This document shows, one piece after another, positions 31,469-51,518 of a stretch of 64,000 bases of DNA; within the stretch, counting starts at the first letter, position 1, and the number at the start of each line of letters is the position of its first letter. Made by a program: the position numbers and the translations under genes. The stretch covers positions 99,263 through 163,262 of the forward strand of contig JANYJF010000008.1 in the NCBI GenBank assembly GCA_025361885.1, in the 5' to 3' direction. The notes under the pieces are model-generated. The model was given only the letters and a program-made list of their open reading frames with translations. It had not been told where the DNA came from and made no database searches. The DNA comes from Coriobacteriia bacterium. GTDB lineage: Bacteria; Actinomycetota; Coriobacteriia; Anaerosomatales; PALSA-660.

Positions 31469-31542
31469 TGGGGCGTAGTCTAATGGTAGGACGGCGGGTT
31501 CTGGTCCCGTGTGTGAGGGTTCGACTCCTTCCGCCCCAGCCA
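31469..31542 (+). tRNA. tRNA-Gln (anticodon CUG), CCA encoded
   Basis: Cloverleaf folded by hand: acceptor UGGGGCG/CGCCCCA, anticodon arm GCGGG-UUCUGGU-CCCGU, T-loop GGUUCGACU. Confidence 0.9.
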
Positions 31543-31571
31543 TGAGGTTCCTAGGTTCGGCTCCATCGCAC

Positions 31572-31647
31572 GGCCCGTTCGTCTAGCGGTTAGGACACCG
31601 CCCTCTCAAGGCGGAGATCACGGGTTCGAATCCCGTACGGGCTACCA
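31572..31647 (+). tRNA. tRNA-Glu (anticodon CUC), CCA encoded
   Basis: Acceptor GGCCCGU/ACGGGCU, anticodon arm CCGCC-CUCUCAA-GGCGG, T-loop GGUUCGAAU. Confidence 0.9.
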
Positions 31648-31771: not shown

Positions 31772-32158
31772 TGGGAGCGGGCCAGACGGCCGCGCGGACG
31801 GGCACCTGTGCACGGACGTGAGGAAAGTCGGGGCTCCGCAGGGCAGGGTGCAGGCTAACGGCCTGGCGTCGCGAGGCGACGGAAAGTGCCACAGAAAAGA
31901 AAACTCCGCCGATACCGCTGCTGCCCGCTCACGCGGGAAGTGGCCCGTCGGCGGAAAAGCTGAAACGGTGCGGTAAGAGCGCACCAGCGTCATGGTGACA
32001 TGGCGGCTTGGCAAACCCCACCCGGAGCAAGGGCGAATAGGAGCGATCAAGGCCGGCCCGGCCGCCGCTCGGGTACGCCCGCTTGAGACCGCCGGTAACG
32101 GCGGCCCTAGATAGATGGTCGTTCACGACAAGACCCCGCTTATCGGCCCGCTCCCACT
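31772..32158 (+). ncRNA. rnpB: RNase P RNA, bacterial type A
   Basis: GAGGAAAGUCGGGGCUCC (P4), CCACAGAAAAG, GGUAAGAGCGCACC, GGCAAACCCCACC, CUAGAUAGAUGG and ACAAGACCCCGCUUAUCGG. Terminal helix GGGAGCGGGCC/GGCCCGCUCCC. Confidence 0.9.
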
Positions 32159-32200: not shown

Positions 32201-34183
32201 TCACACCGCTTCGAGCCTTGTGCGAACAGCTCCCGAGATCCCCTCGCCCGTGATGCGCGGCAGGCGCACGTAGTCTCCGCCCGCGAGTCGCGCGAGTTCT
32301 CGTGCCACGCTGACCGGCGACGCACCCTCGGTGATGTCGATGACCACCGCGTTGATCCCCTTGTCGCGCACCTTGGCCGCCATCACCCGCGCGTCCTCGC
32401 TGCCCAGACCCCCCGAGAGTCCCACATTGGCGCGCCCGTCGGTCACGAGCACGAGCCACGGCACGACCTTCGAATCCCGCCGCGTCTCGGCGTCGAGGAG
32501 GTCCAGCGAGGCCTTGATCCCAGCGGCCAAGGGCGTGGCACCGCCGCTCGGCATGCTTCGCAGCTTGAGCTGAGCAAGCTCGACACTCGATGTCGGTTGC
32601 AGCAGCACCTCGGCGGCGTCTCCGCGGAAGGACACCAGCCCGACCCGGTCGCGTCGCTGGTAGGCGTCGACGAGCATCTCGAGAACAGCGGCCTTGGTGG
32701 CCTCCATGCGTGTCGATACTCCCATCGACCCGCTAGCGTCCACGCAGAACACGATCGACGCTCCGACCCGACGCTTGCGGACCTTGGTGCGCACGTCGGC
32801 CGGCTCGATGCGGATGGCCATGTCGCCCTCGCGCGAGCGCTGGTGGGTCGCCGCCTCGCGGATGGTCGCGTCCAAAGCGATGTCGACGGGCTGCCCGGGG
32901 CGTGGTGGCTCCGCTCTGGTGTAGCGGCCCCGCTTGTCATCCGAGCGGGTCTCCTGTCGCCGGCCCTCGCCGGAGCGTCGCATCCGGTCCAGCGGTGTCA
33001 CCAAGCGGTCGGTGATCTCAGCCGCTGCTTCCGTGTCCGCCTCGGCTGCGTGGCCGCGAACGGACAGACGCGCTGCGGCGCCGTCAGCCGCGGACCCGTC
33101 GGGCGTGCTCTCGGGGCGCGGTGATCCGTCGCCAGCCTCGCCACCGCTCTCCGACATCAGCGAATCCAACCGCATCTGGTCGAACGACACGTCCTCGAAC
33201 GGCTTGCGGTGCACGCGATGCGCGAGCACGAGGGGCGCGACGCGACGCACGTCCTCTGCCTCGGGGGCGTCGCGCCCCTCGAGAGCCGCGAGCGCGCATG
33301 CTGCGCGGGCCATGGTCAGGTCCGCTCGGTGTCCGTCGACGCCTATGTCCGCCGCGACGTTCGCGATGAGGAAGAGCAGATCGCGGGGCATCTTGACCGA
33401 GGGAAGCCGGTCACGTGCGGACGCGATCCGCTTCTCCAGCGCGCGCTCCTGCGGTGTCCACACCATGCGGAACGCCGTCGCGTCGTCCTCGAACGCGGAC
33501 CGACGCTCCATGACCTCGACGCGGTCGCCCGGGGACGAGAGTCCCTCGATCTCCACGCACAGTCCGAAGCGATCGAGGAGCTGCGGACGCACCTCCCCCT
33601 CCTCCGGGTTCATGGTGCCTACGAGGATGAACCGCGCGGGATGCGAGAATGCGACGCCCTCCCGCTCGACGATGTTCACGCCCATGGCCGATGAGTCAAG
33701 CAGCGTGTCGACCAGGTGGTCGTCCAGGAGGTTGACCTCGTCCACGTACAGGATGCCGCGGTTGGCCTCCGCCAGAAGACCCGGCTCGAAGCGCCGTTCC
33801 CCGTGTTTGAGCGCGTGTTCCAAGTCGAGCGTGCCGATGAGCCGGTCTTCCGTCGCAGAGACAGGCAGTTCGACCACGCGAGGTCGCCTGGAGGCCACCG
33901 GAAGCGGCCCCGACTCCGCGCGCGAACGGCACTCGTCGCACAGCGAAGATGCGTCATCCGGGTCGCACGAGAAGCGGCAACCTTCGACCACACGGATCGG
34001 CGGCAGCACCTCGGCCAACGCTCGCACCGCGGTCGACTTCGCCGTGCCCTTGTCACCCCGAACGAGAACGCCGCCGACCCGCGGGTCGACGGCATTGAGC
34101 ACCAGTGCTGTCTTGAGCGTCTCCTGACCGACGATCGCCGGGAACGGGAACGTGTTGCGCCTGATGCTCACACAGACTTCCAT
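32201..34183 (-). CDS. ChlI/BchI-type AAA+ ATPase fused to a ChlD-type vWA domain (chelatase-like motor protein)
   Basis: FPFPAIVGQETLKTAL, Walker A GDKGTAKST, YVDEVNLL, an acidic linker and a vWA MIDAS motif VDASGSMG. Start ATG 34183 (or GTG 34171) overlaps or abuts the upstream stop at 34168. Confidence 0.8.
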   Translation of the reverse strand: MEVCVSIRRNTFPFPAIVGQETLKTALVLNAVDPRVGGVLVRGDKGTAKSTAVRALAEVLPPIRVVEGCRFSCDPDDASSLCDECRSRAESGPLPVASRRPRVVELPVSATEDRLIGTLDLEHALKHGERRFEPGLLAEANRGILYVDEVNLLDDHLVDTLLDSSAMGVNIVEREGVAFSHPARFILVGTMNPEEGEVRPQLLDRFGLCVEIEGLSSPGDRVEVMERRSAFEDDATAFRMVWTPQERALEKRIASARDRLPSVKMPRDLLFLIANVAADIGVDGHRADLTMARAACALAALEGRDAPEAEDVRRVAPLVLAHRVHRKPFEDVSFDQMRLDSLMSESGGEAGDGSPRPESTPDGSAADGAAARLSVRGHAAEADTEAAAEITDRLVTPLDRMRRSGEGRRQETRSDDKRGRYTRAEPPRPGQPVDIALDATIREAATHQRSREGDMAIRIEPADVRTKVRKRRVGASIVFCVDASGSMGVSTRMEATKAAVLEMLVDAYQRRDRVGLVSFRGDAAEVLLQPTSSVELAQLKLRSMPSGGATPLAAGIKASLDLLDAETRRDSKVVPWLVLVTDGRANVGLSGGLGSEDARVMAAKVRDKGINAVVIDITEGASPVSVARELARLAGGDYVRLPRITGEGISGAVRTRLEAV

Positions 34184-35622
34184 TGGAACGAACCGCACGT
34201 GGCAGGAGAGTCCTCGTTGGCCTTGGGACACGTACCCACGTACACGCAGTCCTCGCACGTGTACGCGTTCATGTCGATGCCGCTATGCGAGTACACCTTG
34301 GGCTCAGCCGCTGGTGCCGGCTCTCCGATCGCGGCCAGCAGATCGTCCAGGGGCTCTGGCTGGGGCTCATCGACGGGCCCGGAGAGCTCCGGGGCCGGCT
34401 CGTCCGCGGCGGTGTCGTCGGCACCCGACACGTCCTGCGCGGTGGCGACGGCATCCACGACGGGCGGGATGCCCATCGGCGCGAACGCCACCTCGGGCTC
34501 GGCGAAGGTCAGACCCATGGGCTCCGTGGGGGCCTGGAACTCCGACTCGTCGGGACCCTCTCCACCGGTCGTCTCATCCGGCAGCAGCGCAGCGGTGAAC
34601 TCCTCTTCAAGCACTGCCGGGGCTTCGGGTCCAGGCACCGGGGCAGCCGGAGTCCCAACAGCATCCGAGACAGGCGCGGCACCGTAGTCGCCCATGATCA
34701 CCGGCTTCGCAACAAACTCGTCGACCGGCGACGGCAACATGCCGCCATCCTCGTGCGTGGCCTCATCGAGGCCGACCGGATCGTGCGTGGCGCCGAGGTC
34801 GGTTTCATCGCCGACCGGGACAGGAGCGTCGTCGGTGTCGGGGACGGACACCGGGTCGGGGACGGACACCGGGTCGGGAACGGACACGAGGTCGGCCGAG
34901 GTCTCTGCCGCGGTCTCCTCGACGAACGGCTCGTCTTCGGCTTGAGCGGGCGCCGACTCCGCGCCCGCCGTCTCCCAAGGCCACTGCGTCGCGATCGGAG
35001 TCTCGAAAGTGGCGTTCGCGATGAAGTCGTCGGCGGGCTCCGTCACTTCAGGAGCCGCATCGGGTATCTCGTCGAGTACCGGGGCCTTTGTGAAAGCCGG
35101 CTCCGACGCAACGTCCTCCACGACGGACACAGGCTCCCCGACCGGCTCAGGCGCGACGACGCCATCCGCCTCCATGCGATCGGCGGCGCGGCGCAGCGCA
35201 TCCACCAATGGAAGCGGCGCGGCGCCCTCGGGCTCCATCCGCACGTCGGCGGCCTCGGCGACCACTGCTTCCAGTTCCGCGATGATGGCCTCCGCGTAGG
35301 GTTCCTCGACGTAGGTCTCGGCGGCGACCGCGGATTCGAGCGGCAGGTCGGCGACGGCGCTGGCGGGGCTCTCCCATGCGTCTGCGATCGGCTCGTCCAC
35401 CGGCGTGCCCACGAGCGGCTCCACGACGACGGGCTTATAGATCACGACGGGGGTCGACTTCTCGATGTCGGCGACGAACAGGTCGAGCCCTTCGAACGAA
35501 CCGTCCACCGGGAGCAGCGCGCCCAAGCTGTCCAGCGCGTCCTGACGGCTCGAGAACGTGGTCTCCGAGACCAGACGTACCGAGCCGGTCGAGCGGTCGC
35601 GTCCGGCGAGAAAGAATCGCAT
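34168..35622 (-). CDS. hyper-acidic low-complexity protein with small N-terminal domain and C-terminal 4-Cys motif
   Basis: Strong GC3 bias in this frame; the opposite-strand ORF is Arg/Gly junk. ATG 35622 lies 8 nt after AGAGG. C-terminus YTCEDCVYVGTCPKANEDSPATCGSFQWKSV. No family recognised. Confidence 0.6.
   Translation of the reverse strand: MRFFLAGRDRSTGSVRLVSETTFSSRQDALDSLGALLPVDGSFEGLDLFVADIEKSTPVVIYKPVVVEPLVGTPVDEPIADAWESPASAVADLPLESAVAAETYVEEPYAEAIIAELEAVVAEAADVRMEPEGAAPLPLVDALRRAADRMEADGVVAPEPVGEPVSVVEDVASEPAFTKAPVLDEIPDAAPEVTEPADDFIANATFETPIATQWPWETAGAESAPAQAEDEPFVEETAAETSADLVSVPDPVSVPDPVSVPDTDDAPVPVGDETDLGATHDPVGLDEATHEDGGMLPSPVDEFVAKPVIMGDYGAAPVSDAVGTPAAPVPGPEAPAVLEEEFTAALLPDETTGGEGPDESEFQAPTEPMGLTFAEPEVAFAPMGIPPVVDAVATAQDVSGADDTAADEPAPELSGPVDEPQPEPLDDLLAAIGEPAPAAEPKVYSHSGIDMNAYTCEDCVYVGTCPKANEDSPATCGSFQWKSV
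34837..34890. repeat. 18-bp tandem repeat x3 (encodes VSVPDP x3 on the minus strand)
   Basis: GTCGGGGACGGACACCGG at 34837-34854 and 34855-34872. A degenerate third copy lies at 34873-34890. Confidence 0.9.
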
Positions 35623-35823
35623 CCGGGACACCTCTTCGGGAGTAGGTGGGTCAGGTTTGCGGGGTCGAGCCGCGGCGATGGCCGTCGCGCGTCCATGCTA
35701 GCCCCCGGCGACGGTGCGGGCAACAGCATTCGAGTCGCGTCGCGACAGGCGTTCCGGCCCCGCATGCTACGATGTCCGGGCAGGTCATCTACGCTGCCCA
35801 CGAGTGAGGAAGCCTTCGCGCGG

Positions 35824-37509
35824 ATGTACTCAGGGATGCTTCTTGCCGAGTGCGACTTCGTCGCAGTCGACCTCGAGACCACGGGCTGCCAGCCTGGACG
35901 CAACAGCATCATCGAACTCGGCGCCGTGCGCGTGCGCGGAGGAACGGTGGTCGCGGTCTTCTCCGAGCTGGTCCGGCCCCACGATCCCATCCCCGCGGCG
36001 GTCGAAGCGTTGACCGGGATCACTCCCGCGATGGTGGCGGACGCCGGGAGCCTCGACGACGCCATGGCGCGCTTCCGGTGCTTCGCGAAGGGTGCGGTGC
36101 TGGTCGCGCACAATTATCGCTTCGACCTGAGCTTCCTGGACTTCGAGTCCGAGCGGCTTTGGGGCGCTCCTCGTCCACGCCCCGCGATCGACACGCTCTC
36201 GCTTGCCAGGAAACTCCATCCGGGCATAGGCAAGTACAACCTCGGCTACCTCACTGAGATGTATGGCACGCCCACTCGTCCGGACCACCGCGCGATGACG
36301 GACGCCCTGGCCGCGGCGGAGGTCCTCGTGGCAATGCTCCCGGCATTCCACTCCCTCGGGATCAAGACCGTGGGTCAGCTCGCGGCATTCGCCGGGCTCG
36401 ACGGACAGACCCTGCTCGCATCGAAGTTGCCGCTGACTTCCCACATGCCCGACACGCCGGGAGTCTACCTTCTGCGCGACGCGTCCGACCGCGTCATGTA
36501 CGTAGGCCATGCGAAGAGCCTGCGAGTGCGCGCTCGCAGCTACTTCTATCCCACGGGTGACGGCGTGCGAGGAGAGATCGCGGCCAAAGTCGAGCGGATC
36601 TCATGGGTGACGACCCACTCCGGCCTTGACACGGCGCTGCTGGAGCGCCGACTCGTCGACCTCTACGATCCTGAGCACAACGCCGCGTCGCAGCGCTCGC
36701 GGCGGGCCGTCTTGCTGCACATGAACACCACCTCGGCCTTCCCCACCCTTCGCGTCGTCAACGCACCACGCGTGCGGGGCGTGACACTCGGGCCGCTCAC
36801 CAGCCGCTGGGCCGCCACCACCCTCGCCGACGCACTGACGGACCTCTACCGCCTGCGTCGATGCGCTCGCCGTGTGACGCCGGCCCTCATCTCGCGCCCA
36901 TGCCAGCACCGGGACGACCGCACCTGTCCGATGCCGTGCGTGGAAGACGTCGACCATGAGGACTATGGGCGACGGGTGCAAGCCGCGCTCAGGGCCTTCA
37001 CCGACGGCGACACGTCGACGCGTGCGGCGTTGCTCGAGCGGCAGCAGGCGGCAGCCGAGGAGATGCGGTACGAGGACGCGATCCGCTATCGCGACGCGTT
37101 GCGCGCGCTGGACCGCGCTCAGTCGACCCTTCGAACGCTGCGTGAGGCCATCGCGCATCCCGACGCTGTCCTCGTCGAATGGGAGGGCGATCACGCCGTC
37201 GCGCACATGATCCGCGGGGGACGCCGTGCCACTGTCGTGCGTTCGACGCGCGCCGGTGTGCTCTCCGGAGCCTTCGCATCGCGACTCGGCACCGCGATGC
37301 ATCGTACCTATTTCGACGCCGCGCAGCCTTCCGACCCTCAGCGCCTCACGTCATCGCAGCTCGCTGAGATACTCATCGTCGCGACGTATCGATCGCAGAC
37401 CCTCCCCACCGAGTTCCCGGTCACCACCGAGGCCGACACCGTGCGTCGGGTACGCTCCGCCGTCGAGCGCGAACTCAGGGTGCCGAGGCGGCGTCACGCA
37501 GCCGTCTGA
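35824..37509 (+). CDS. DEDD (DnaQ-like) 3'-5' exonuclease fused to a GIY-YIG (UvrC/Cho-like) nuclease domain
   Basis: FVAVDLETTG (ExoI), AHNYRFDLSFL and HRAMTDA motifs, then PGVYLLRD...VMYVGHAKSLRVR (GIY-YIG). Only the last 561 codons of the 1108-aa ORF are used. Start ATG 35824. Confidence 0.8.
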   Translation: MYSGMLLAECDFVAVDLETTGCQPGRNSIIELGAVRVRGGTVVAVFSELVRPHDPIPAAVEALTGITPAMVADAGSLDDAMARFRCFAKGAVLVAHNYRFDLSFLDFESERLWGAPRPRPAIDTLSLARKLHPGIGKYNLGYLTEMYGTPTRPDHRAMTDALAAAEVLVAMLPAFHSLGIKTVGQLAAFAGLDGQTLLASKLPLTSHMPDTPGVYLLRDASDRVMYVGHAKSLRVRARSYFYPTGDGVRGEIAAKVERISWVTTHSGLDTALLERRLVDLYDPEHNAASQRSRRAVLLHMNTTSAFPTLRVVNAPRVRGVTLGPLTSRWAATTLADALTDLYRLRRCARRVTPALISRPCQHRDDRTCPMPCVEDVDHEDYGRRVQAALRAFTDGDTSTRAALLERQQAAAEEMRYEDAIRYRDALRALDRAQSTLRTLREAIAHPDAVLVEWEGDHAVAHMIRGGRRATVVRSTRAGVLSGAFASRLGTAMHRTYFDAAQPSDPQRLTSSQLAEILIVATYRSQTLPTEFPVTTEADTVRRVRSAVERELRVPRRRHAAV

Positions 37510-38368
37510 GCCTGGCGAGGTTCTCGGAGTCCTTCAGGGGCATCTGGCCCGGCATCTCCAGTATGGCTGCGACGTGCCCGAGACGCGGCTCCGCGAACAT
37601 GGCCGCGAATCCGCTCTCTCCGATGCCGCCGTCGCCTATCCATGCGTGCCGGTCGCGCCGCTCGCCCAGGCCGCCCGAGCAGTCGTTCGCGTGGATGACC
37701 TGAAGCCGGTTCAGACCGATCCGGTGGTCGAGATCATCCACGAACTCGGACCACTCATCGTGACCGCGCAGGTCGATACCGGCGGCGAACGCGTGGCACG
37801 TGTCGAAGCACACGCCGACCGCGTCGACACCCTGTGAGCGCACCGCTTCGACGGTCGCAGCGATCTGCGCGACGTCGCGACCGAACGAACGCCCCGCACC
37901 TGCGGCGTTCTCCAGCAGCACGGCCGGAGCGGGAAGGCCCAGCCCGGCGGTGGCGGCGTTCCACGCGAGGACGGCGCCATCGGCCACACGCGACGCCGCG
38001 GCCTGAGGCCCATCCGGAGCAGTGCCCATGTGGACGACGACTCCGTCAGCGTGCAGGACCGATGCGCGCGCGATCTCGTCCGCGAGCGCCAGGACCGACC
38101 TGTGCCACATAGCTTCATCGGTGGATCCCAGGTTGATGAGATACGCGGCGTGAGTGAACAGAGGCGTGATGGCCACTTCCGTAAGCGAGGCCGAGAAACG
38201 CTCCGCCGCGCCCGGGTCGATCGGCGGGCCTGCCCACATACGCGGGCTCTTGCCGAAGACCTGGATGCACTCGCACCCGACCTCGAGCGCGTAGGCGACG
38301 GCGGCGTCATACCCGTCGGCCACGCGAACATGGGCGCCTATGCGCAACCTGGGCCTCCTGTCGACCAT
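37475..38368 (-). CDS. nfo: deoxyribonuclease IV (AP endonuclease family 2)
   Basis: RIGAHV...IQVFGKSPRMW..., TIM-barrel Nfo pattern with HANDC and H-x-D metal ligands. The 3' end overlaps the convergent nuclease gene by 35 nt. Confidence 0.88.
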   Translation of the reverse strand: MVDRRPRLRIGAHVRVADGYDAAVAYALEVGCECIQVFGKSPRMWAGPPIDPGAAERFSASLTEVAITPLFTHAAYLINLGSTDEAMWHRSVLALADEIARASVLHADGVVVHMGTAPDGPQAAASRVADGAVLAWNAATAGLGLPAPAVLLENAAGAGRSFGRDVAQIAATVEAVRSQGVDAVGVCFDTCHAFAAGIDLRGHDEWSEFVDDLDHRIGLNRLQVIHANDCSGGLGERRDRHAWIGDGGIGESGFAAMFAEPRLGHVAAILEMPGQMPLKDSENLARLRRLRDAASAP

Positions 38369-38441
38369 GCGTTGGACCGGCGCGGCACGATGGCGGAAGT
38401 ATACCCGGCATGCTGTCGGGAACGGGCGGTATCATCCGGGT

Positions 38442-39698
38442 ATGGCGAAGCTGACCCAGACACCCGGTGACGACGAGGCGCTACGTCCTTGGACGGGACG
38501 CGCCGTGCTGCACGTCGACATGGACGCCTTCTTCGCATCCGTGGAACAGCTCGACCATCCGGAATGGCGAGGGAAGCCGGTGATCGTGGGCGGGTCCGCG
38601 GACTCGCGCGGCGTGGTCTCGACCTGCTCCTACGAGGCGCGCGTGTTCGGCGTGCGGTCCGCGATGCCATCCGCCACGGCGCGCAGGCTGTGCCCCGGCG
38701 CCATCTGGGCGCGCGGCAGCTTCGACAGGTACCGGGAGGTGTCGCGACAGGTCTTCGACATCTTCCGCGACAACACCCCTGCCGTTCAGGCGGCGTCGAT
38801 CGACGAAGCGTACCTCGACGTCACGCCCGGACTTCACGGAGAGCACCCCGTGGCCATCGCAAGGGCCATACAGACCGAGGTCGCGGCGCTCGGCGTCACC
38901 TGTTCGGTGGGCCTGGCCAGCGTCAAGACCGTGGCGAAGATCGCGTCCGACCGGGACAAGCCGCGCGGTCTGACTGTGGTGTGGCCCGGCGAAGAGGCGG
39001 CCTTCCTGGCACCCCTGCCCGTCGGCGCGCTGCCCGGGATCGGCCCGAAGAGCGCGCAGCGGCTCATCTCGCTCGGTATTCGAACCTTGGGGGACCTCGC
39101 CGGACTCGACGACGCCACGGCCGTCCAGGTCATGGGATCTCACGGGCCGTCCGCCTCTCGCCGGGCACGAGGCGTCGACACGAGCGGCGTGCACGACCGC
39201 CAATCGGTCAAGTCGGTCTCCAACGAACGCACCTTCGCCTCGGACCTGCGCGCGACCGCCGAGGTCGAAGGCGTTGTGGGCGGTCTCGCCGAGCATGTGT
39301 CGAGCCGCCTGCGTTCCAAGGGGCTTGCCGGACGCACCGTGACGGTCAAGGTGCGATTCGCAGACTTCACGACGCGCACCGTGCAGCGCACCCTCGACCG
39401 TCCGGCGGACCTGCCGGACATCATCGCCGACACCGCGGTGGAGATCCTCCGTGGCGTGTGGAACCCCGGAGTCGGTGTGAGGCTTCTGGGCGTCGGCGTC
39501 TCCGGATTCGAGGATGGCGCCCTGCAGCTCGACCTGTTCGGGCAGGCGACGCCCGCCGAGGACGACCGGCGCCGCGCGGTCGCCAGAAGCGTGGACGCGG
39601 TCCGCGAGCGCTTCGGGGACGGAGCCGTGAGCATGGGCGCGAAGCGGATCCGTCCGCACAGGGTCGATGCGCCCAAGCCCTTTGGCGAGCAGGACTGA
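38442..39698 (+). CDS. dinB: DNA polymerase IV (Y-family, catalytic residues intact)
   Basis: LHVDMDAFFASVEQ and SIDEAYLDVT catalytic motifs. Start ATG 38442, 10 nt after TATCAT. Confidence 0.9.
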   Translation: MAKLTQTPGDDEALRPWTGRAVLHVDMDAFFASVEQLDHPEWRGKPVIVGGSADSRGVVSTCSYEARVFGVRSAMPSATARRLCPGAIWARGSFDRYREVSRQVFDIFRDNTPAVQAASIDEAYLDVTPGLHGEHPVAIARAIQTEVAALGVTCSVGLASVKTVAKIASDRDKPRGLTVVWPGEEAAFLAPLPVGALPGIGPKSAQRLISLGIRTLGDLAGLDDATAVQVMGSHGPSASRRARGVDTSGVHDRQSVKSVSNERTFASDLRATAEVEGVVGGLAEHVSSRLRSKGLAGRTVTVKVRFADFTTRTVQRTLDRPADLPDIIADTAVEILRGVWNPGVGVRLLGVGVSGFEDGALQLDLFGQATPAEDDRRRAVARSVDAVRERFGDGAVSMGAKRIRPHRVDAPKPFGEQD

Positions 39699-39707
39699 GT
39701 CCGGGCC

Positions 39708-42700
39708 TCACACGGTCGCGCTCGCGTCTTCCCACGACTCCTCCTCCGGCGCGCCCGCACCGGGTCGCTGCGGCCCCATCGACCCGAGCCCGACGCCACG
39801 CCGCAGCCGCACGGGCTCGCCCACGTCGGTGCGCACCACGTACGGCGACACCTTGTCCGCGATGATCGCGAGGCCACGCTCCGGGTTGTTCTGCAGGATG
39901 CCTTCGACCAGGTAGCAGCGATGGCGGACGATCGTCTCCCCCGCCCGCATGAGCGCGTCGGAGAACACGACGACGTCGAGCAGTCCCGTGGCATCCTCCA
40001 GCGTCAGGAAGCAGGTCCGCTTGCCGGACTTCGTCGGCGGCGTCTGCGCGCGCTCGCGCACGCCGACGACCCGCACGCGCATGCGGTCCGGCAACCGCGC
40101 CAGATCGCGGGCCAGCATCACCCGCCGTGCGTCGAGGTCCTTCGCGCACAGTTCGAGCGGATGACAGGTGATCGCCAGGCCCATGAGCTCCAGCTCGGCG
40201 CCCAGCCGTCTGGCCGGCGACCATCCCGACACGTGTCCCGTCGCGTCGCGCGCGCGGGCCCGCGCCGGCGCCAGCGCCAACGTCCGGTCTCCCGCCACCC
40301 CTTCCTTCGCGATAACAGCCTTGATCTCCGGCAGCAGCACGAGCATCTCGTCGCGCGTGGGCGGACGGGCGGCCTCGGTGGTGCCGAGCCCGTCGAGGGC
40401 GCCGACCCGGATCAGGCTGGCCACCGCGTCCACTTCGCCGCGCGTGCGCCGAAGCAGGTCCGCGAGGTCCTCGAAGGGCCGGACGGCCCTCTCCTTCTCG
40501 ATGCGTGCGAGCAGCCGGACGTTCATGTTCAGCAGCCCCTTGAGGCCCACGCGGATAGCGGCTCCATCCTTCTCCACCGTGCAGTCCGCGCCCGACGCGT
40601 TGACGTGCGGCGGCAGGATCGCGATGCCGTGATGCCGTGCGTCGTCGAGCACGAGGCGCGGCGAATAGAACCCCATCGGCTCGTTGTTGACGATGGCGGC
40701 GGCGAACTCGGCCGGGTAGTGGACCTTGAGCCACCCGCTCGCGTAACTGACCACGGCGAAGCATGCCGCGTGAGCCTTGTTGAAGCCGTACGCCGCGAAG
40801 CCCTGCAGCTGGCGGAACACCTCCTCAGCTACTTCGTGCGACGAGCCGAGCGCGCACGCCCTCTCCACAAAGCCCGCGTGCAGCTTCTCCATCTCCGCGC
40901 GGGAGCGGCCCTTGGTCATCGCACGGCGCAGCGAGTCGGCTTCGGCCAGGGTGAAGCCCGCTACCGCTTTGGCCACCTGCAACACCTGCTCCTGGTAGAC
41001 GATGACACCGTAGGTGTCGCGTAGCACGTGACCCATGCCGGGGTGCGGCACGACCACCGGCTCCATGCCATGCCTTCGCCTGATGAACGGGACGATCATC
41101 TCGGCCTCGAGCGGACCGGGCCGGAACAGCGAGATCGCCGCGATGATGTCGGTGAAGCGCGACGCCCGCAGGCGCGTGTTGAGGTTGCGCTGCCCGGAGC
41201 TCTCCAGCTGGAACATCCCGACCGTGTCCGCGGCGGCGATGGCGGCGTAGACGGCCGGGTCGTCGTGCGGCAGCTCGAACGGCTCGGGCACCGCGTCCTC
41301 CCCGACACGCGCCCTCGCCATCTCCACGGTCTCGGATATCGCTGAATGGATGCGAAGGCCCAAGATGTCCATCTTGACCAGTCCGAGCGCCTCGACGTCG
41401 TCCTTGTCGTACTGCGCGACGACCACGCCCTTGGCCGCCCACTGCAGCGGCGCCCACGTGTCGACCGGCTCGCGGGTTATCAGGAAGCCGCCGAGGTGCG
41501 TGCCGAGGTGCATCGGCGTGTGGTCGAGCTGCTCGGCGATCTCCAGGAGAAGCTCGTGCCCCGGCTCCTTCAAGGGATGGTGCTCGCACTCCGGATAGGT
41601 GGTCAGCACGTCTCGTATCTTGCGCGCGGAGACCCACGGCAGGTGGCGCGACAGCGCGTTGACCTCCTCCGGAGCATGTCCGAGCGCCTTGGCTGCCGTG
41701 CGCACCGCGCTCTTGGCAGTCATGGTGTTGACCGTTGCGATCATGGCCACGTGCTCGCTGCCGAACCGCTTGTAGATGAAGTCGATGACCTCGTCTCTGC
41801 GCGCGGAGTCGAAGTCCACGTCGATGTCGGGCATCTGGCGGCGGGCCGGGTTGAGGAACCGCTCGAAGAGCAGGTCGTGTTCGACGGGGTCGGCGTCGGT
41901 GATGCCCAGGACGTAGGTCACGATGCTGTCCCCGGCGCTGCCGCGGCCCGAGCAGCGGATGCCCCGCCCCTTCGCGAAGGTGACGATCTCCCGCACCGTC
42001 AGGAAGTACTCGGAGAAGCCGAGCTCCTCGATGACACCGAGTTCGTACTGCATGCGCCGCAGCGCCTCGGGGGTGACGGGACGGTAGCGCTCCTCGAGTC
42101 CACGCCACGCGAGTCCGGCGAGTGTCGAGTACGGCGTCTCGCCGCTTGGGACCTCGATGCTGGGGAAATGGAACGCTCCCAGACCGAGGTCCAGGTTGCA
42201 GCGCTCCGCTATCTCGAGAGTGGCGTCGCACGCGCCGGGGAGATTGGCGAACAGGCGACGCATCTCGGTGGCGGTCTTGAACGACAGCTCCGCGTTGGAC
42301 CGCAGCAGCGGTCCGGGGAGCGCTTCCCGCGCCCCGACCGAGGACAGCACGTCATGGATGCGGTGCTGCTCCCGCTCGACGTAGTGGATGTCGTTCGTGG
42401 CCACAAGCGGCACCCCGAGGCTCTCCGCGAGACCGGCCAGGCCTGCGATCAGGCGGGTCGAGTCCGCCGTGAGCTCGTGGACGGCCTCGATGTAGAAGTC
42501 GCCGGGCGAGAAGCAGGCCGCGAGCCGCCTCGCGGCCTCGCGGGCGCGCCACGGCTGGCCGGCTGCGACCGACGCCGCCACCTCGCCCCTCCCGCATCCC
42601 GACAGTCCGATGAGCCCTTCGCTACACCGTGCGAGGTCGCGCAGCAAGACCACCGAGCGTGCGGACCCCTCACCGTCCTCCGACTCCCGACGCAGGTGCG

Positions 42701-43079
42701 CGGCCGACAGCAGCCGGCACAGGTTGCGGTAGCCGTGGATGTCCCGCGCGAGCAGCGTGAGGTGGAATCCGGACGCCGACGCCCGCCCGAAGCCGCTCGG
42801 ATACGGCGCCATCAGCCGATCAGTGGGCGGCAGGTCGCACTCGGGCTCCGCGATCCCGCACGTCTCGACGACCACCTCCGCCCCGATGATCGGCTTGATG
42901 CCCGCCGCGATCGCCTTCTGGTAGAAGCGGATGGCGCCGTACAACCCTTGGTGGTCCGTGAGGGCGAGCGCAGGCATCCCGCATCGCTTCGCCTTGGCGA
43001 TCAGTCCGTCGAGCGACGACGCGCCGTCCATGAAGCTGAACGACGAGTGGACATGGAGATGGACGAACGAACCCGCCAC
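39708..43079 (-). CDS. dnaE2: error-prone DNA polymerase DnaE2 (Pol III alpha C-family)
   Basis: PHP N-terminus FVHLHVHSSFSFMDGASS is the DnaE2-type HxHSxFSF(L/M)DGAS signature. Lies downstream of a LexA box. Preferred start is GTG 43079, 8 nt after GGGGG and 17 nt after the upstream stop; the ORF extends to 43328. Confidence 0.85.
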   Translation of the reverse strand: MAGSFVHLHVHSSFSFMDGASSLDGLIAKAKRCGMPALALTDHQGLYGAIRFYQKAIAAGIKPIIGAEVVVETCGIAEPECDLPPTDRLMAPYPSGFGRASASGFHLTLLARDIHGYRNLCRLLSAAHLRRESEDGEGSARSVVLLRDLARCSEGLIGLSGCGRGEVAASVAAGQPWRAREAARRLAACFSPGDFYIEAVHELTADSTRLIAGLAGLAESLGVPLVATNDIHYVEREQHRIHDVLSSVGAREALPGPLLRSNAELSFKTATEMRRLFANLPGACDATLEIAERCNLDLGLGAFHFPSIEVPSGETPYSTLAGLAWRGLEERYRPVTPEALRRMQYELGVIEELGFSEYFLTVREIVTFAKGRGIRCSGRGSAGDSIVTYVLGITDADPVEHDLLFERFLNPARRQMPDIDVDFDSARRDEVIDFIYKRFGSEHVAMIATVNTMTAKSAVRTAAKALGHAPEEVNALSRHLPWVSARKIRDVLTTYPECEHHPLKEPGHELLLEIAEQLDHTPMHLGTHLGGFLITREPVDTWAPLQWAAKGVVVAQYDKDDVEALGLVKMDILGLRIHSAISETVEMARARVGEDAVPEPFELPHDDPAVYAAIAAADTVGMFQLESSGQRNLNTRLRASRFTDIIAAISLFRPGPLEAEMIVPFIRRRHGMEPVVVPHPGMGHVLRDTYGVIVYQEQVLQVAKAVAGFTLAEADSLRRAMTKGRSRAEMEKLHAGFVERACALGSSHEVAEEVFRQLQGFAAYGFNKAHAACFAVVSYASGWLKVHYPAEFAAAIVNNEPMGFYSPRLVLDDARHHGIAILPPHVNASGADCTVEKDGAAIRVGLKGLLNMNVRLLARIEKERAVRPFEDLADLLRRTRGEVDAVASLIRVGALDGLGTTEAARPPTRDEMLVLLPEIKAVIAKEGVAGDRTLALAPARARARDATGHVSGWSPARRLGAELELMGLAITCHPLELCAKDLDARRVMLARDLARLPDRMRVRVVGVRERAQTPPTKSGKRTCFLTLEDATGLLDVVVFSDALMRAGETIVRHRCYLVEGILQNNPERGLAIIADKVSPYVVRTDVGEPVRLRRGVGLGSMGPQRPGAGAPEEESWEDASATV

Positions 43080-43095
43080 GAGGTCAGCCCCCGCG

Positions 43096-43506
43096 CTAGT
43101 CCGCGATCCCGGTGAGCAACCACGTTCCGCCCAGCCGGTCGTACGCCAGATCGAACGTGCCTCCGCCTGCGAGTACGCGAAAGCAGCGGCGCGAGACATG
43201 TCGCGCACGGTCCCACCATGCCCGCTCCACCGTCCACTGTTGGACGACGGCCTCGACCAGGTACGTCCGTCCGCCATGGACGAACCCCAACGGCCGTCCC
43301 GAGTCGCCGTCCCACTCCACCGGCACAATGATCTCCGCGCGCTTGCCGGCGGAGGCGCCCGACGGCAGCTCCGAGGCGCGGCGCACCCATGGCGTGCCGA
43401 GCAGCTCGGCTATCACCGGGCGACGGCTCTGGACGGTGTCGAACAGCGTGATCGGCTGGCCGTCGGGGTGCGCGTCGAACCGTTTGATGGCGGCGTTGTG
43501 GCCCAT
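43096..43506 (-). CDS. small SOS-cassette protein (136 aa), C-terminal WW-containing domain resembling DUF6504
   Basis: Very strong GC3 bias. ATG 43506 is the only start downstream of the predicted TSS. C-terminus reads GFVHGGRTYLVEAVVQQWTVERAWWD...RRCFRVLAGGGTFDLAYDRLGGTWLLTGIAD. The family assignment is from memory only. Confidence 0.65.
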   Translation of the reverse strand: MGHNAAIKRFDAHPDGQPITLFDTVQSRRPVIAELLGTPWVRRASELPSGASAGKRAEIIVPVEWDGDSGRPLGFVHGGRTYLVEAVVQQWTVERAWWDRARHVSRRCFRVLAGGGTFDLAYDRLGGTWLLTGIAD

Positions 43507-43592
43507 ATGTTCCGGGAGCTTCCTTGTGTGGAGGGGACACGCGGGTCGCCAACGGCGTGATCCTCCTCGCCTGGTGCCCGACCCGCATCTCG

Positions 43593-43621
43593 AGTATATC
43601 GAACGTATGTTCGGTATACAA
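43593..43621 (-). promoter_or_regulatory. SOS promoter TTGTAT-17 nt-TATACT
   Basis: -35 at 43616-43621 and -10 at 43593-43598 (minus strand). The 17-nt spacer contains the LexA box. Confidence 0.55.
43600..43613. promoter_or_regulatory. LexA operator (Cheo/SOS box CGAAC-N4-GTTCG)
   Basis: Perfect palindrome CGAACGTATGTTCG inside the promoter spacer, upstream of the small protein and dnaE2. Confidence 0.75.
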
Positions 43622-43671
43622 CGCGACTCTGACACGCGGCGTACACGTTCGGGCGAACGGAACGGAAGGCG

Positions 43672-44328
43672 CTACTGAGCGTCGTCAGGATGCACGATCA
43701 CACGCGACGCAAGCTCGCGTCCGAGAGCGTGCGGCGAACCTGCGACTGCCACGAGCATGGCCCCGTCCATGGGCGCGATCTCAAGGATGTCCACGTGCGC
43801 ACCTGGGAACAGTCGCAGGGACGCAAGATGCGCGAGCAGCGTCTCATCGTCCTCGGCCACGCTCAGGATCGACGCCCCTGCTCCGGCGGGGACATCCGAC
43901 AGCGGCACGCCCTTGACTGATGCGATCTTCCCGTCCGACGACGGGATCGGGTGCCCGTGCGGACAGACCTCCGGATTGCTCAGGAACTCCTCAAGGGCGC
44001 TTTGGACCCGCGGCGAGAGCGCGTGTTCCAGCTTGCAGGCCTCCTCGTGGACCTCGTCCCACGGCAGTCCCAGGACGTCGACGAGCAGGCGCTCGGCGAG
44101 CCGATGGCGCCTGATGATGCTCAGCGCCTCGAGCCTTCCCTGGCTCGTGAGCGCGACGCCTCCGCCCGGACGCTCGACCAGACCCGCCGCCTCGAGCCTG
44201 CGAAGCGTCGCGGTCACCGTCGGTCCGGAAACCGACAAGGCCTCCGCGAGTTGCGTGGGACGGACCTCGCCGGACTCCGAGATCTTGTAGATCGTCTCCA
44301 GGTACTCTTCCAAGGTCTCGCTCGGCAT
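43672..44328 (-). CDS. DtxR/IdeR-family metal-dependent transcriptional regulator with C-terminal FeoA/SH3-like domain
   Basis: Start ATG 44328 (MPSETLEEYLETIYKISESG). HTH, the metal-site helix HEEACKLEH and a FeoA-like tail. Confidence 0.88.
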   Translation of the reverse strand: MPSETLEEYLETIYKISESGEVRPTQLAEALSVSGPTVTATLRRLEAAGLVERPGGGVALTSQGRLEALSIIRRHRLAERLLVDVLGLPWDEVHEEACKLEHALSPRVQSALEEFLSNPEVCPHGHPIPSSDGKIASVKGVPLSDVPAGAGASILSVAEDDETLLAHLASLRLFPGAHVDILEIAPMDGAMLVAVAGSPHALGRELASRVIVHPDDAQ

Positions 44329-44387
44329 GGCGGCTTCCCGTTGGCTCGGGGACTCGAGGGGATGCGCCGCACGACCGCGGCTCCACG

Positions 44388-44393
44388 AGTATA
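44388..44393 (-). promoter_or_regulatory. candidate -10 (TATACT) of the dtxR-family gene
   Basis: TATACT on the minus strand, about 60 nt upstream of ATG 44328. No convincing -35. Confidence 0.35.
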
Positions 44394-44515
44394 GCGCAGC
44401 GACATGCGCGGTCCGCCCAGCACGGCGACAAGAGGACGGACCCGGTTGGCAGGCCGGACGGCGCCGACAACAGCACACCCCGTCGACCCTCACTGCGAAG
44501 CCGCTCATCCGCCAC

Positions 44516-44548
44516 TTGCGACCTTGCATCGCAATTGCTGGCAATTGC
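44516..44548. promoter_or_regulatory. cluster of palindromes upstream of RNA unit A promoter (possible operator)
   Basis: TTGCGA-N7-TCGCAA (44516-44534), then GCAATTGC at 44531-44538 and again at 44541-44548. Ends 12 nt before the -35. Confidence 0.4.
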
Positions 44549-47901: not shown

Positions 47902-48701
47902 AACGGTACCTCCTCGGGGAGTCGGCCACGGAACACGACCAGGCTTCGATACCCGGCCGCCAGCAGCGCCTCACGGGCCTCGCCCATGCCGGCGCCGACC
48001 TCATCAGGCCTGTGCGCGTCGGAGCCGCAGGTGACGGGCACACCGCGACGGGCAGCGGCACGCAGGAACCCGGGTGCCGGGTACAGCTCAGCGCACGGCT
48101 TGCGTAGCCCCGCCGTGTTCATCTCGTATGCGACTCCCGCATCCGCCAGGACCTCCGCTGTCTGCTCGTACCAGCGAGCCGGATCCTCGCCGGGCAAGAA
48201 GCCGAACTTCTTGACAAGGTCCGGATGTGCCATCACGTCGAACAACCCGCTGCTCGCCGCATCAGCGAGGGTCGAGAAGTACCGGTCCCACAGTTTGCCG
48301 ATGTCCCAGTCGCTGTACCGGTCGGTCAGGTCCGGGTCGTCGAAGGCCCACCCGTCGATGAAGTGCACGGACCCCAGGACCATGTCGAGCGAGTGCTCCC
48401 TGGTCATCCGGCGGATCTCGGCATCGCCACCTTCGATCCAGTCGGCCTCGACGCCCAGCAGGACCTCCGGGCCGGAGAAGCGCGCGGAATCCGCCGCCAA
48501 GGCGCGGATGTCACGAACGTACTCGGGGAACTGCTCGGCGGGCATCGCGTATTCCAGGGCGTGCGGCGTGTCCACGGGAAGGGGCAAGTGGTCGGTGAAG
48601 CACAGCGTGGAGATCCCGGCGGCCGCTGCGGCATCCAGGTACTCCCGCGGCGTGCCTGTCGCGTGACCGCACCGCGACGTATGCATGTGCATGTCGATCA
48701 T
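47898..48701 (-). CDS. PHP-family histidinol-phosphatase-like hydrolase
   Basis: MIDMHMHTSRCGHA, FTDH and GSDAH metal motifs. Confidence 0.8.
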   Translation of the reverse strand: MIDMHMHTSRCGHATGTPREYLDAAAAAGISTLCFTDHLPLPVDTPHALEYAMPAEQFPEYVRDIRALAADSARFSGPEVLLGVEADWIEGGDAEIRRMTREHSLDMVLGSVHFIDGWAFDDPDLTDRYSDWDIGKLWDRYFSTLADAASSGLFDVMAHPDLVKKFGFLPGEDPARWYEQTAEVLADAGVAYEMNTAGLRKPCAELYPAPGFLRAAARRGVPVTCGSDAHRPDEVGAGMGEAREALLAAGYRSLVVFRGRLPEEVPL

Positions 48702-49750
48702 CGGGCCTCCTCGATCACGCCGCCGCCCACGACGACATCTCCATCGTACGCGACAAGGGCCTGGCCGGGAGCGACTCCCTCGACCGGCTCGTGCAGCTCG
48801 GCCGTCACGGCGCCGTGGTACAAGGACACGGTGGCGGCGACAGGTCGCGAACCATACCTGACCGCGACATCCAGTTCGGCCTCACACTCGTCGCCCGTCC
48901 ACACGACGTCGCGCACACTGATCCGACTCACCCGCAGACTCAGGCGAGGACCGACTGTCACAGTCGCCGAAGCCGGGTCCACGGCCGTCACATAGCGGCG
49001 CCCTTCTCCCCCGCCCACACCGAGACCGCGACGCTGACCCACCGTGAACGAAGGCGTGCCGCGATGGGTGCCGATCGGCTGGCCGGTCGCGTCGACGATC
49101 TCTCCCGGCACGAACGCCTCCGGCCGACGCTGGCGAAGGAAGGCGCCGACGTCACCGCCCGGCACGAAGCAGATCTCCTGGCTCTCAGCTCGATCGGCGG
49201 TCGGCAGACCGAACTCGCGCGCCAGCGAACGCACCTCGCGCTTCGCGAGATCGCCCACCGGGAACAGAGTGCGGTCGAGCTGGTCGCGGCTCATGCGGTA
49301 CAGGAAGTACGACTGGTCCTTCGAGGCGTCCAGGCCACGAGCGAGCCGGGACCGTCCGTCGCGACCGACGATGCGCGCGTAGTGGCCGGTCGCCAGGTAG
49401 TCGGCGTCCTGCAACGCCACACGGCGCCAGAGCTCCTCGAACTTGACGATGTCGTTGCACACGATGCAGGGGTTCGGCGTCCGCCCCGCGGCGTACTCTT
49501 CGCAGAACGGTTCGATCACAGCGGTCTCGAAGAACTCCCGGAAGTTCAGGGTGTAGTGCGCGATGCCGAGCGAGTCACACACCCGCTTCGCGTCGCGGGT
49601 GGCATCGACCGAGCAGCACCCGCCCTCAGCGTCCCCGCTCGGCCACAGCTGCATGGTGACGCCTGTGACGTCGTGACCCGCGCGCACGAGAAGAGCGGCT
49701 GCGACAGAAGAGTCGACACCGCCGCTCATCGCAACGAACACTCGGGCCAT
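48698..49750 (-). CDS. mnmA: tRNA 2-thiouridine(34) synthase
   Basis: VFVAMSGGVDSSVAA PP-loop, plus CNDIVKF and the catalytic Cys context. Confidence 0.92.
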   Translation of the reverse strand: MARVFVAMSGGVDSSVAAALLVRAGHDVTGVTMQLWPSGDAEGGCCSVDATRDAKRVCDSLGIAHYTLNFREFFETAVIEPFCEEYAAGRTPNPCIVCNDIVKFEELWRRVALQDADYLATGHYARIVGRDGRSRLARGLDASKDQSYFLYRMSRDQLDRTLFPVGDLAKREVRSLAREFGLPTADRAESQEICFVPGGDVGAFLRQRRPEAFVPGEIVDATGQPIGTHRGTPSFTVGQRRGLGVGGGEGRRYVTAVDPASATVTVGPRLSLRVSRISVRDVVWTGDECEAELDVAVRYGSRPVAATVSLYHGAVTAELHEPVEGVAPGQALVAYDGDVVVGGGVIEEAR

Positions 49751-49785
49751 GCGGCGTACGTCCTCTCCCGCGCGTGGCGTGGGGC

Positions 49786-50253: not shown

Positions 50254-50297
50254 TGGTGTCGTCTCCTGTCGGTTCGGTGCGGGGCGTGGTCGTGTGG

Positions 50298-51500: not shown

Positions 51501-51518
51501 GTCCGGTCCCTTCCCTCT

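Follow-up and report, generated by a model that had tools for sequence, protein, structure and literature searches.

What does a magnesium-chelatase-type motor do when no large chelatase subunit is encoded nearby and its conserved neighbour is a strongly acidic, largely disordered protein? The question is raised by a stretch of 64,000 nucleotides (nt) from a Coriobacteriia bacterium, an uncultured relative of Anaerosoma (assembly GCA_025361885.1, contig JANYJF010000008.1, positions 99,263 to 163,262 of the forward strand), here called the window, in which a gene for a ChlD-family ATPase stands directly downstream of a gene for a 484-residue acidic protein that ends in a four-cysteine (Cys4) motif. 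Class-I chelatase motors (ChlI/D and CobS/T) are understood only as machines that insert metal into tetrapyrroles by way of a large H or N subunit, and the locus offers a candidate partner, short regions of that partner that track the ATPase (residues 134-160 and 297-316) and a cultured carrier, Anaerosoma tenue. We propose, as a plausible reading to which we give somewhat less than an even chance, that the acidic protein is a client or effector of the ChlD-like machine and that the two act together. The strongest evidence for such a functional link is, in our view, the co-variation of two conserved islands within the acidic protein with the presence of the ATPase gene. The initial annotation of the window had described both genes, and all of its features are present at the coordinates it gave, both genes lying on the minus strand:

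34168 to 35622, minus strand: gene of the acidic protein, ATG at 35622, TGA at 34168-34170, 484 amino acids (open reading frame and translation)
32201 to 34183, minus strand: ChlD-family AAA+-linker-vWA gene, 660 amino acids from the ATG at 34183 or 656 from the GTG at 34171, stop codon at 32201-32203

Conserved pairing and island co-variation

When one genome per species was scanned, the acidic gene was found at 68 loci (individual loci are written L001 and so on), which by their record titles are overwhelmingly metagenome-assembled genomes of Coriobacteriia, Anaerosomatales or Actinomycetota, and in 53 of these species-level loci the ATPase gene, called the chelatase gene for short, lies directly downstream in the same orientation. 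Starting from the chelatase instead, the acidic gene was found directly upstream in 5/5 homologues on long contigs, including that of A. tenue M08DHB, and the gene-neighbourhood comparison across genomes that the initial annotation had proposed therefore finds the pairing of the acidic gene with the AAA+-vWA gene conserved. Everywhere examined, the pair belongs to a syntenic block in the order dnaE2-dinB-nfo-(exonuclease)-acidic-chelatase-(variable)-gltX-metK-priA, and it stays adjacent though the flanks vary, the exonuclease gene being present or absent and genes for secreted Big_7-type proteins, glnS or an energy-coupling factor (ECF) transporter being inserted downstream. Because all pairs sit in this one conserved block, adjacency alone is weak evidence. 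In A. tenue, an ECF-type transporter operon (CbiQ/EcfT, two ATP-binding cassette ATPases and an ECF S-component; L077:8413-11503) directly follows the chelatase gene; the operon is not found at the corresponding position in the window.

The chelatase gene is missing after the acidic gene in 15 loci, 11 of which have an intact acidic reading frame and were scored as lacking the chelatase (among these 11, L051 has less than 900 nt of downstream sequence); the next gene in those 11 loci is typically glnS or a secreted-protein gene. On a rough neighbour-joining tree of dinB, nfo and gltX, the chelatase-less loci fall in no fewer than five separate places, grouped as L064; L042 (with L039); L029; L032/L043 (with L028); L031/L052; and L069. 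Loss is asymmetric: at least 11 loci have the acidic gene but no chelatase, whereas all five chelatase-seeded loci have the acidic gene. The pair is accordingly not obligate, since the acidic gene persists in at least 11 genomes without an adjacent chelatase.

The acidic protein comprises a folded N-terminal domain of 62 residues (the N-domain), about 370 residues of acidic disorder and the C-terminal Cys4 motif, and alignments show conserved internal islands, namely ADAWE, LxxALRRAAxxMEAEGIVAPE, WPW and [RK]PVIMGDY. The parts that matter for the comparison are the following:

35437 to 35622, minus strand: N-domain, residues 1-62, beta-beta-alpha-beta-beta in the AlphaFold2 model
35143 to 35223, minus strand: helix island, residues 134-160, LxxALRRAAxxMEAEGIVAPE, candidate ATPase docking element
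34975 to 34983, minus strand: WPW motif, residues 214-216, near-invariant in alignments
34675 to 34734, minus strand: V-motif island, residues 297-316, [RK]PVIMGDY, second candidate docking element
34171 to 34263, minus strand: Cys4 tail, residues 454-484, YTCxDCVYxxTCPKxxxxxPxxCGSFQWKSV

A small hidden Markov model (HMM) for each conserved island was scored on all acidic proteins, those of 56 loci with the chelatase and 11 without it, and gave these median scores:

N-domain HMM: 63.5 bits with chelatase, 53.0 bits without
Cys4-tail HMM: 69.2 bits with chelatase, 69.4 bits without
Helix island (134-160) HMM: 36.6 bits with chelatase, -3.9 bits without
V-motif (297-316) HMM: 18.6 bits with chelatase, -1.5 bits without

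Where the chelatase is missing, the N-domain and the Cys4 tail persist, but in most cases the helix and the V-motif do not. Loci with the chelatase have the helix island in 48/56 cases and those without it in 2/11 (Fisher p=2.4e-5, uncorrected for phylogeny), the V-motif figures are 46/56 and 2/11 (Fisher p=8.5e-5, again uncorrected for phylogeny), and a rough lineage-collapsed comparison, with counts estimated by eye, gives p ~3e-4. Islands are kept without the chelatase in L039 and L042, and WPW occurs in most loci whether the chelatase is present or not. The helix and PVIMGDY are singled out as the parts relevant to a link because their presence tracks the chelatase. The two-gene module of motor and acidic substrate or adaptor that the initial annotation had put forward is thus upheld as far as the recurrent pairing and the co-varying central islands go, but not as a fixed unit, given that the acidic gene can survive alone.

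The acidic protein and the ATPase

The acidic protein has an isoelectric point of 4.05, with 101 D+E against 16 K+R, and its residues 71-440 consist to 67% of D/E/P/A/V and include only 6 basic residues (K/R); the description of this middle as low complexity holds for its composition, but the conserved islands mean that it is not pure filler. The codon-position GC content of its reading frame (0.75/0.49/0.83) is typical of true genes in the window, whose overall GC content is 68%, and the true-gene pattern with a third-position GC of 0.83 is found in both reading frames of the pair. Both genes are real and under purifying selection. The protein has no match in Pfam or NCBIfam at E<=0.1 or in PADLOC at E<=0.01. 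A word-indexed search returned 44 homologues, and a profile of the N-domain, run against clusters made at 50% identity, matched 394 of them with a threshold of E<=1e-3 and 262 with one of E<=1e-10. Of the 150 best matches listed, all but one 2099-aa repeat protein have the domain N-terminally, and most have lengths of 250-560 aa, some being shorter and probably truncated. The single outlier, P0045 (2099 aa), is the top match of the N-domain profile, but its 21 partial matches are confined to profile positions 20-49; it is more likely a repeat protein carrying a comparable helical motif than a true family member. Judged by these searches, the acidic protein belongs to an unnamed family confined to Anaerosomatales/OPB41-like Coriobacteriia, including the cultured A. 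tenue, and the tripartite 484-residue protein of the initial annotation is real, conserved and where it was placed.

AlphaFold2 models residues 1-50 with a predicted local distance difference test score (pLDDT) of ~87-94, and M1, F3, F4, R26, A29, L33, D52 and P58 are the conserved columns of the N-domain in alignments. In the middle of the protein, helices are modelled at 109-126 and 138-152, the latter with a pLDDT of ~88, the remainder being disordered; the V-motif has a variant in the family, PVIMGSY. A structural similarity search had been called for, and Foldseek with the AlphaFold2 model against PDB yielded nothing significant, the best match (E=0.2, RbcS-like SSUL) falling at the N-domain.

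The tail cysteines 456, 459, 465 and 476 spell C-x2-C-x5-CP-x9-C, the motif named in the initial annotation, which is invariant in the family; the tail as a whole has 14 invariant columns family-wide and is a probable metal site. Many family members read G-M-[TS]-C-x-x-C here, and a C-terminal profile against PDB sequences found only a 14-residue likeness (E=1.1) to the GMTCxxC loop of the ATP7B heavy-metal-associated (HMA) domain. AlphaFold2 gives the tail a pLDDT of ~60 and no defined fold, both in context and modelled alone, which would be unsurprising if it needs a bound metal to fold. A minimal acidic protein of 159 aa (L064:10001-10480) is made up of the N-domain, an acidic linker of ~60 aa and the Cys4 tail, with no chelatase match in the 1.9 kilobases (kb) downstream, and this minimal form suggests that N-domain and tail are the functional core.

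The ATPase is divided as follows, with MIDAS short for metal-ion-dependent adhesion site:

33185 to 34150, minus strand: ChlI-type AAA+ module, residues 12-333, with Walker A K49, Walker B D148/E149, sensor 1, arginine finger and sensor 2
33929 to 33979, minus strand: Cys4 insertion in the AAA+ module, C69-x3-C73-x8-C82-x2-C85, invariant in 50/50 clade members
32759 to 33184, minus strand: linker, residues 334-475, from the conservation profile
32210 to 32758, minus strand: vWA/integrin-I domain, residues 476-658, with complete MIDAS (D482-x-S484-x-S486, T550, D582)

Its hallmark motifs are GDKGTAKST (residues 43-51), YVDEVNLL (146-153) and DASGSMG (482-488), and its Pfam domains are Mg_chelatase, AAA_lid_2, VWA and VWA_2. 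The AAA+ module matches Synechocystis ChlI (8osf) with 368 bits over residues 4-333 and TIGR02030 with 431 bits, and the vWA domain scores 104 bits against the integrin domain of BchD (2x31). GxKGTAKST, YVDEVNLL, GTMNPEEG, RPQLLDRFG and DGHRAD in the AAA+ module, and DASGS, GGATP and TDG of the MIDAS, are invariant in 50/50 clade members. The first part of the linker is variable, acidic and Pro-containing, and the second is conserved and carries DATIREAATHQ, the 'AAPxQ' region that Pfam assigns to ChlD proteins; PF26791 is precomputed on homologues of the ATPase. The complete order of ChlI-type AAA+ module, linker and ChlD-type vWA/MIDAS domain that had been described is therefore confirmed by Pfam, NCBIfam and PDB matches as well as by motifs. 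The 120 best homologues listed all share this Pfam domain set, and where they have names these are 'magnesium chelatase subunit D (family protein)' or 'VWA domain-containing protein'. In NCBIfam, the protein matches TIGR02442 ('putative cobaltochelatase') over its full length with 763.2 bits, below the cut-off of 779.45, and TIGR02031 (BchD-ChlD) end to end with 463.4 bits, below the cut-off of 499.55; because both scores fall under the curated cut-offs, it is a family-level member of ChlD and not an equivalog. On sequence grounds we take it for a new member of the known ChlD/BchD family. It does not fall in the MoxR-vWA group, its best AAA+ matches being Mg_chelatase/ChlI, bpMoxR matching only at E=0.012 with 15 bits against a cut-off of 27, and the vWA domain being fused; the PADLOC defence models gave no match at E<=0.01.

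The Walker A motif reads GTAKS, and in Synechocystis ChlD the Walker A lysine is likewise residue 49 (PMC3789969). At the positions aligned to the Cys4 insertion, Synechocystis ChlI has no cysteines; with this insertion added to the tail of the acidic protein, both proteins of the pair have a four-cysteine site. A programmed-frameshift gene ('fs-chlD') was considered and rejected, as no slippery heptamer X_XXY_YYZ follows the AAA+ module, the only two in the gene lying at codons 217 and 590. There is no second AAA+ chelatase gene among the window genes examined, though a chlI gene may lie elsewhere in the genome.

A scan of 76 related loci revealed no gene of CobN or ChlH size in the ±10 kb around them, and neither tetrapyrrole nor cobalamin genes occur among the Pfam-scanned window genes (~10.1-53.7 kb). 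The only reading frame of CobN size in the window is DnaE2 (39708-43328), and other large reading frames near related loci begin like FeoB homologues or signal-peptide proteins, as judged from gene calls and N-termini. The initial annotation had reported no such genes nearby, and this holds both in the window and in the surroundings of the related loci; its term 'orphan' is apt at the local level. Anaerobes with orphan chlD genes have been reported before (PMC9227772). The description of the Anaerosomatales does not mention B12, chelatase or corrinoids, and a search for literature joining Anaerosomatales with cobalamin found only clinical cobalamin papers.

Gene junction, expression and surroundings

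Three short elements bear on how the two genes are expressed:

34168 to 34171, minus strand: GTGA start/stop overlap of 4 nt, GTG at 34171, a translational-coupling signature
35629 to 35637, minus strand: Shine-Dalgarno sequence of the acidic gene, GAAGAGGTG, with GAGGTG 7 nt ahead of the ATG
35695 to 35723, minus strand: promoter-like element of the acidic gene, TTGCCC, 17 nt, TAGCAT, ~70 nt upstream of the ATG

Read from its ATG (34183), the ATPase gene overlaps the acidic reading frame by 16 nt; read from the GTG, it has 7 codons ahead of a conserved FPF anchor, homologues usually having 8, and GTG 34171 (656 aa) is the likelier start because its N-terminal length is nearest to the inferred starts of homologues. 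The GTGTGA junction is kept in the subclade of the window (L001, L009, L011 and L030), and in a second subclade the acidic and chelatase genes nearly abut. Most other relatives, A. tenue included, have a strikingly conserved spacer of ~75-100 nt between the two genes, so that the translational coupling noted in the initial annotation applies to the window and its subclade but is not general; the tight coupling of the window, with GTGA in place of the spacer, is a derived or subclade-specific state.

The spacer contains, in order, ACCACAA..T.TTGGTGACA, an inverted repeat that a T-rich tail often follows, and then GGAGG with the start codon (examples are L047:11283-11363, L046:10119-10199, L022:10990-11070 and, in A. 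tenue, L077 between 5926 and 6001). The inverted repeat has 12-20 base pairs, the inner CTAC/GTAG being fixed and the outer part covarying, and closes on an 8-nt loop, CATATAGT or GATATATT, with a -10-like TATAGT/TATATT. In an alignment of 18 sequences, the helix of 20 pairs is 79.7% paired and its inner 12 pairs nearly fully so; double-change cells number 48 versus 20 in shuffles, 0/500 shuffles reach 48, and all slid controls are beaten. Rfam scans of three related loci at gathering thresholds returned only rnpB and tRNAs and no family for the spacer. The element could be read as a sigma-70-like promoter ([GC]TGACA, 18 nt, TATAGT) plus a hairpin, the latter serving as terminator for the acidic gene or as operator, and from the promoter-like element and hairpin it follows that the chelatase is probably separately transcribed or regulated in most of the clade.

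Nearly all of the 57 related loci examined have a GAGG-type box 6-9 nt ahead of the start of the acidic gene, and the 7-mers GTTGCCC, CTAGCAT and TAGCATA recur in 21-26 of the 57 related upstream regions. The conserved Shine-Dalgarno sequence and the recurrent TTGCCC-17-TAGCAT argue that the acidic gene is expressed from its own promoter. The element emerged only from the comparison of loci: a strict sigma-70 scan did not call it, and the promoter and terminator scan gave nothing above chance at tool thresholds. No LexA-box-like motif was found in the 57 upstream regions.

The pair has rnpB on one side and a nuclease gene on the other, as the initial annotation had noted, within the following surroundings:

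31469 to 31647: tRNA-Gln and tRNA-Glu, after gltX
31774 to 32158, plus strand: rnpB, convergent to the ATPase gene
35827 to 37509, plus strand: RNase_T exonuclease gene, divergent from the acidic gene
within 38340 to 44544, plus strand: dinB
39708 to 43328, minus strand: dnaE2, a 1206-aa reading frame, DnaE2 by its homologues
43096 to 43635, minus strand: DUF6504-like reading frame
43672 to 44544, minus strand: DtxR/Fe-dependent-repressor-like reading frame; feoB adjoins the repressor in some relatives

The exonuclease product has a sub-threshold GIY-YIG match in Pfam (20.6 bits against a cut-off of 22.6), and the 3' end of its gene overlaps a convergent nfo-like gene (37475-38368) in the window; some relatives have this exonuclease/GIY-YIG (UvrC_M-like) gene, which stands between nfo and the acidic gene, and others do not. 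The nfo-like, dinB and dnaE2 genes lie beyond it, and 38340-44544 holds a damage-tolerance-like cluster whose syntenic order is clade-wide. The Pfam-scanned genes include recG, fakA/degV, def, fmt, rsmB, glpX, queD, NIF3, mnmA, iscRSU and ribH, and priA, metK and gltX were recognised via homologues. An iscR(Rrf2)-iscS-iscU-mnmA cluster (48698-51959, minus strand) lies ~14 kb from the pair and might be relevant if the Cys4 tail of the acidic protein holds an Fe-S cluster.

Proposed explanation, rivals and known systems

The pair is conserved within a single lineage of environmental, anaerobic Coriobacteriia (Anaerosomatales/OPB41 and relatives). The explanation we propose follows the motor-adaptor-effector arrangement that is on record for ChlI/D-ChlH and CobS/T-CobN and has been suggested for NorQ/D-NorB, CbbQ/O-Rubisco and related systems, with the acidic protein in the role of effector or client. 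The central helix (134-160) and the PVIMGDY island (297-316) of the acidic protein would be docking points for the ATPase, an acidic side chain might complete the coordination of the ATPase's Mg2+-MIDAS site, and ATP-driven movement would remodel the client or help to load or unload a metal site, while the N-domain and the Cys4 tail would carry a core function of the acidic protein that needs no ATPase. Direct binding, the role of the MIDAS, metal binding by the Cys4 tail and ATPase activity are what we infer in this scheme.

Several observations weigh against this explanation. Six loci in five lineages (L019/L023, L021, L045, L053 and L057) keep the chelatase with both islands lost, the island statistics are not properly phylogeny-corrected, and alignment in a disordered region is fragile. 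Adjacency within one syntenic block could be inherited and not selected, and the promoter-like element and hairpin that part the genes in most relatives suggest separate transcription or regulation. The Cys4 tail is modelled with low confidence. A genome whose acidic gene has no chelatase beside it may still carry a chelatase gene at another place. Finally, ATP hydrolysis by ChlD on its own has not been observed (PMC3789969), and neither a separate chlI gene nor a frameshift site was found here.

The same observations can be arranged differently, and three other explanations have to be set against the proposed one. The arrangement may be one of inherited synteny only, in which the ATPase is the small/medium subunit of an ordinary class-I chelatase with a CobN/ChlH-like subunit elsewhere and the acidic protein is an unrelated, lineage-specific housekeeping protein; we see in this the main rival and rate it somewhat below the proposed reading. 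A good deal is in keeping with it, from the match to TIGR02442 over the full length, which at 763 bits narrowly misses the cut-off of 779, the single conserved syntenic block, and the existence of CobN-serving fused ChlI/ChlD proteins in other Actinobacteria (PMC9227772), to the promoter-like element and Shine-Dalgarno sequence that the acidic gene has for itself, the hairpin and second promoter-like element ahead of the chelatase in most relatives, and the survival of the acidic gene where the chelatase is absent. What it leaves unexplained is that, where the chelatase is missing, the two central islands decay and the N-domain and tail do not. It also has to contend with the lack of any cobN, chlH or cobalamin gene in the 64 kb here or within ±10 kb of 76 loci, with the anaerobic life of the cultured members of the clade, which were isolated under anoxic conditions (PMC9686372), strict anaerobes being said to use the anaerobic B12 route only (PMC9227772), and with the documented occurrence of chlD without a large subunit in anaerobes (PMC9227772).

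It is quite improbable, in our view, that the acidic protein belongs instead with the upstream DNA-damage genes (exonuclease/GIY-YIG, nfo, dinB and dnaE2) as a DNA mimic or regulator, the chelatase being a bystander. Extreme acidity is a hallmark of DNA-mimic proteins, and the acidic gene always adjoins nfo or the divergent exonuclease gene; yet no LexA-box-like motif precedes it in the 57 regions, the exonuclease gene is missing at many loci that have the acidic gene, a long disordered region whose length varies (159-565 aa) does not resemble the compact DNA mimics that are known, and the co-variation of the islands with the chelatase would again go unexplained. That the acidic reading frame is a spurious, untranslated frame is a thought that GC-rich DNA invites, since such DNA yields many long false reading frames, several of which overlap the region in other frames. 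It is effectively refuted by the coding-type codon-position GC content, the conserved Shine-Dalgarno sequence and start, the homologues, which number in the hundreds and combine invariant residues at both termini with a middle of variable length, and the N-domain that AlphaFold2 folds with confidence.

To return to the proposed partnership of ATPase and acidic protein, neither the pairing nor the co-variation of islands with the chelatase was found in the literature in a limited search. The phenomenon of orphan chlD is already known; what the locus adds is a conserved candidate partner with islands that track the ATPase. If the link is real, it would give AAA+/vWA 'chelatase' machines a wider role; if not, the acidic protein would still be an uncharacterised, lineage-conserved family with a probable metal site. 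A bolder claim, which we think unlikely as matters stand, is that the ChlD-type protein of these anaerobes is a motor-adaptor for the acidic Cys4 protein and not a tetrapyrrole chelatase subunit, which would make the acidic protein the first client of such a class-I chelatase motor to be something other than a porphyrin. Were it true, it would explain in terms of function why anaerobes have orphan chlD genes, and possibly show what the machinery did before chlorophyll and aerobic B12 synthesis.

As to known systems, the tail of the acidic protein has no significant sequence or structure match to zinc knuckles, HMA domains or WhiB-like sites in Pfam, NCBIfam, Foldseek or the PDB profile search. 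The GMTCxxC-like reading is shared with HMA domains, but the ~30 residues of the tail are too short for the ferredoxin-like fold of ~70 residues, and Pfam finds no HMA match; the 'CP' dipeptide is shared with ferredoxin-type motifs. WhiB-like Fe-S proteins have the cysteine order C-Xn-C-X2-C-X5-C, a conserved turn and a basic tail; the acidic protein shares their C-x2-C-x5-C spacing, but its fourth cysteine follows and does not precede the others (C-X2-C-X5-C-X10-C), it ends in GSFQWKSV, and there is no Pfam match.

ChlD/BchD and the fused ChlI-ChlD proteins of TIGR02442 (the M. tuberculosis type, serving CobN) have the same AAA+ module, acidic/Pro linker, AAPxQ-type region and vWA/MIDAS domain; the present ATPase differs in scoring under the equivalog cut-offs, in its invariant Cys4 insertion and in its anaerobic host lineage, and it has no ChlH/CobN or pathway genes nearby, its conserved neighbour being the acidic disordered protein. 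In magnesium chelatase, the integrin-I domain of ChlD is the main link to the effector ChlH, and MIDAS residues are essential for activity (PMC6604950). Anaerobes with chlD but without the large subunit or a chlorophyll or B12 pathway have been reported by Kuznetsov, Milenkin and Antonov (2022), who call its function unknown and give Spirochaeta thermophila, Brevefilum fermentans and Thermodesulfobacterium commune as examples of orphan chlD or chlD+chlI (PMC9227772). The present case is alike in that an anaerobe has a gene of the ChlD type and, locally, no gene for a large subunit; the stage-1 examples of that study, S. thermophila and B. fermentans, carry a programmed frameshift signal that yields a ChlI-like product, and no such heptamer stands after the AAA+ module here. 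That study proposes no partner protein for orphan chlD (PMC9227772), whereas a conserved candidate partner is identified here.

Finally, a preprint on CobSTN extends the motor-adaptor-effector logic to NorQ/D, CoxD/E, CbbQ/O and RavA/ViaA (bioRxiv 10.64898/2026.07.21.739949). The MoxR-type systems (CbbQ-CbbO-Rubisco, NorQ-NorD-NorB, CoxD-CoxE and RavA-ViaA) and CobS-CobT-CobN share with the proposed pair the action of an AAA+ ring with a vWA/MIDAS adaptor on a specific client, often in the maturation of a metal centre (bioRxiv 10.64898/2026.07.21.739949). The pair differs from these systems in that its AAA+ module is of the ChlI and not the MoxR type, its motor and adaptor are one chain, and its proposed client would be acidic and disordered where theirs is a folded enzyme.

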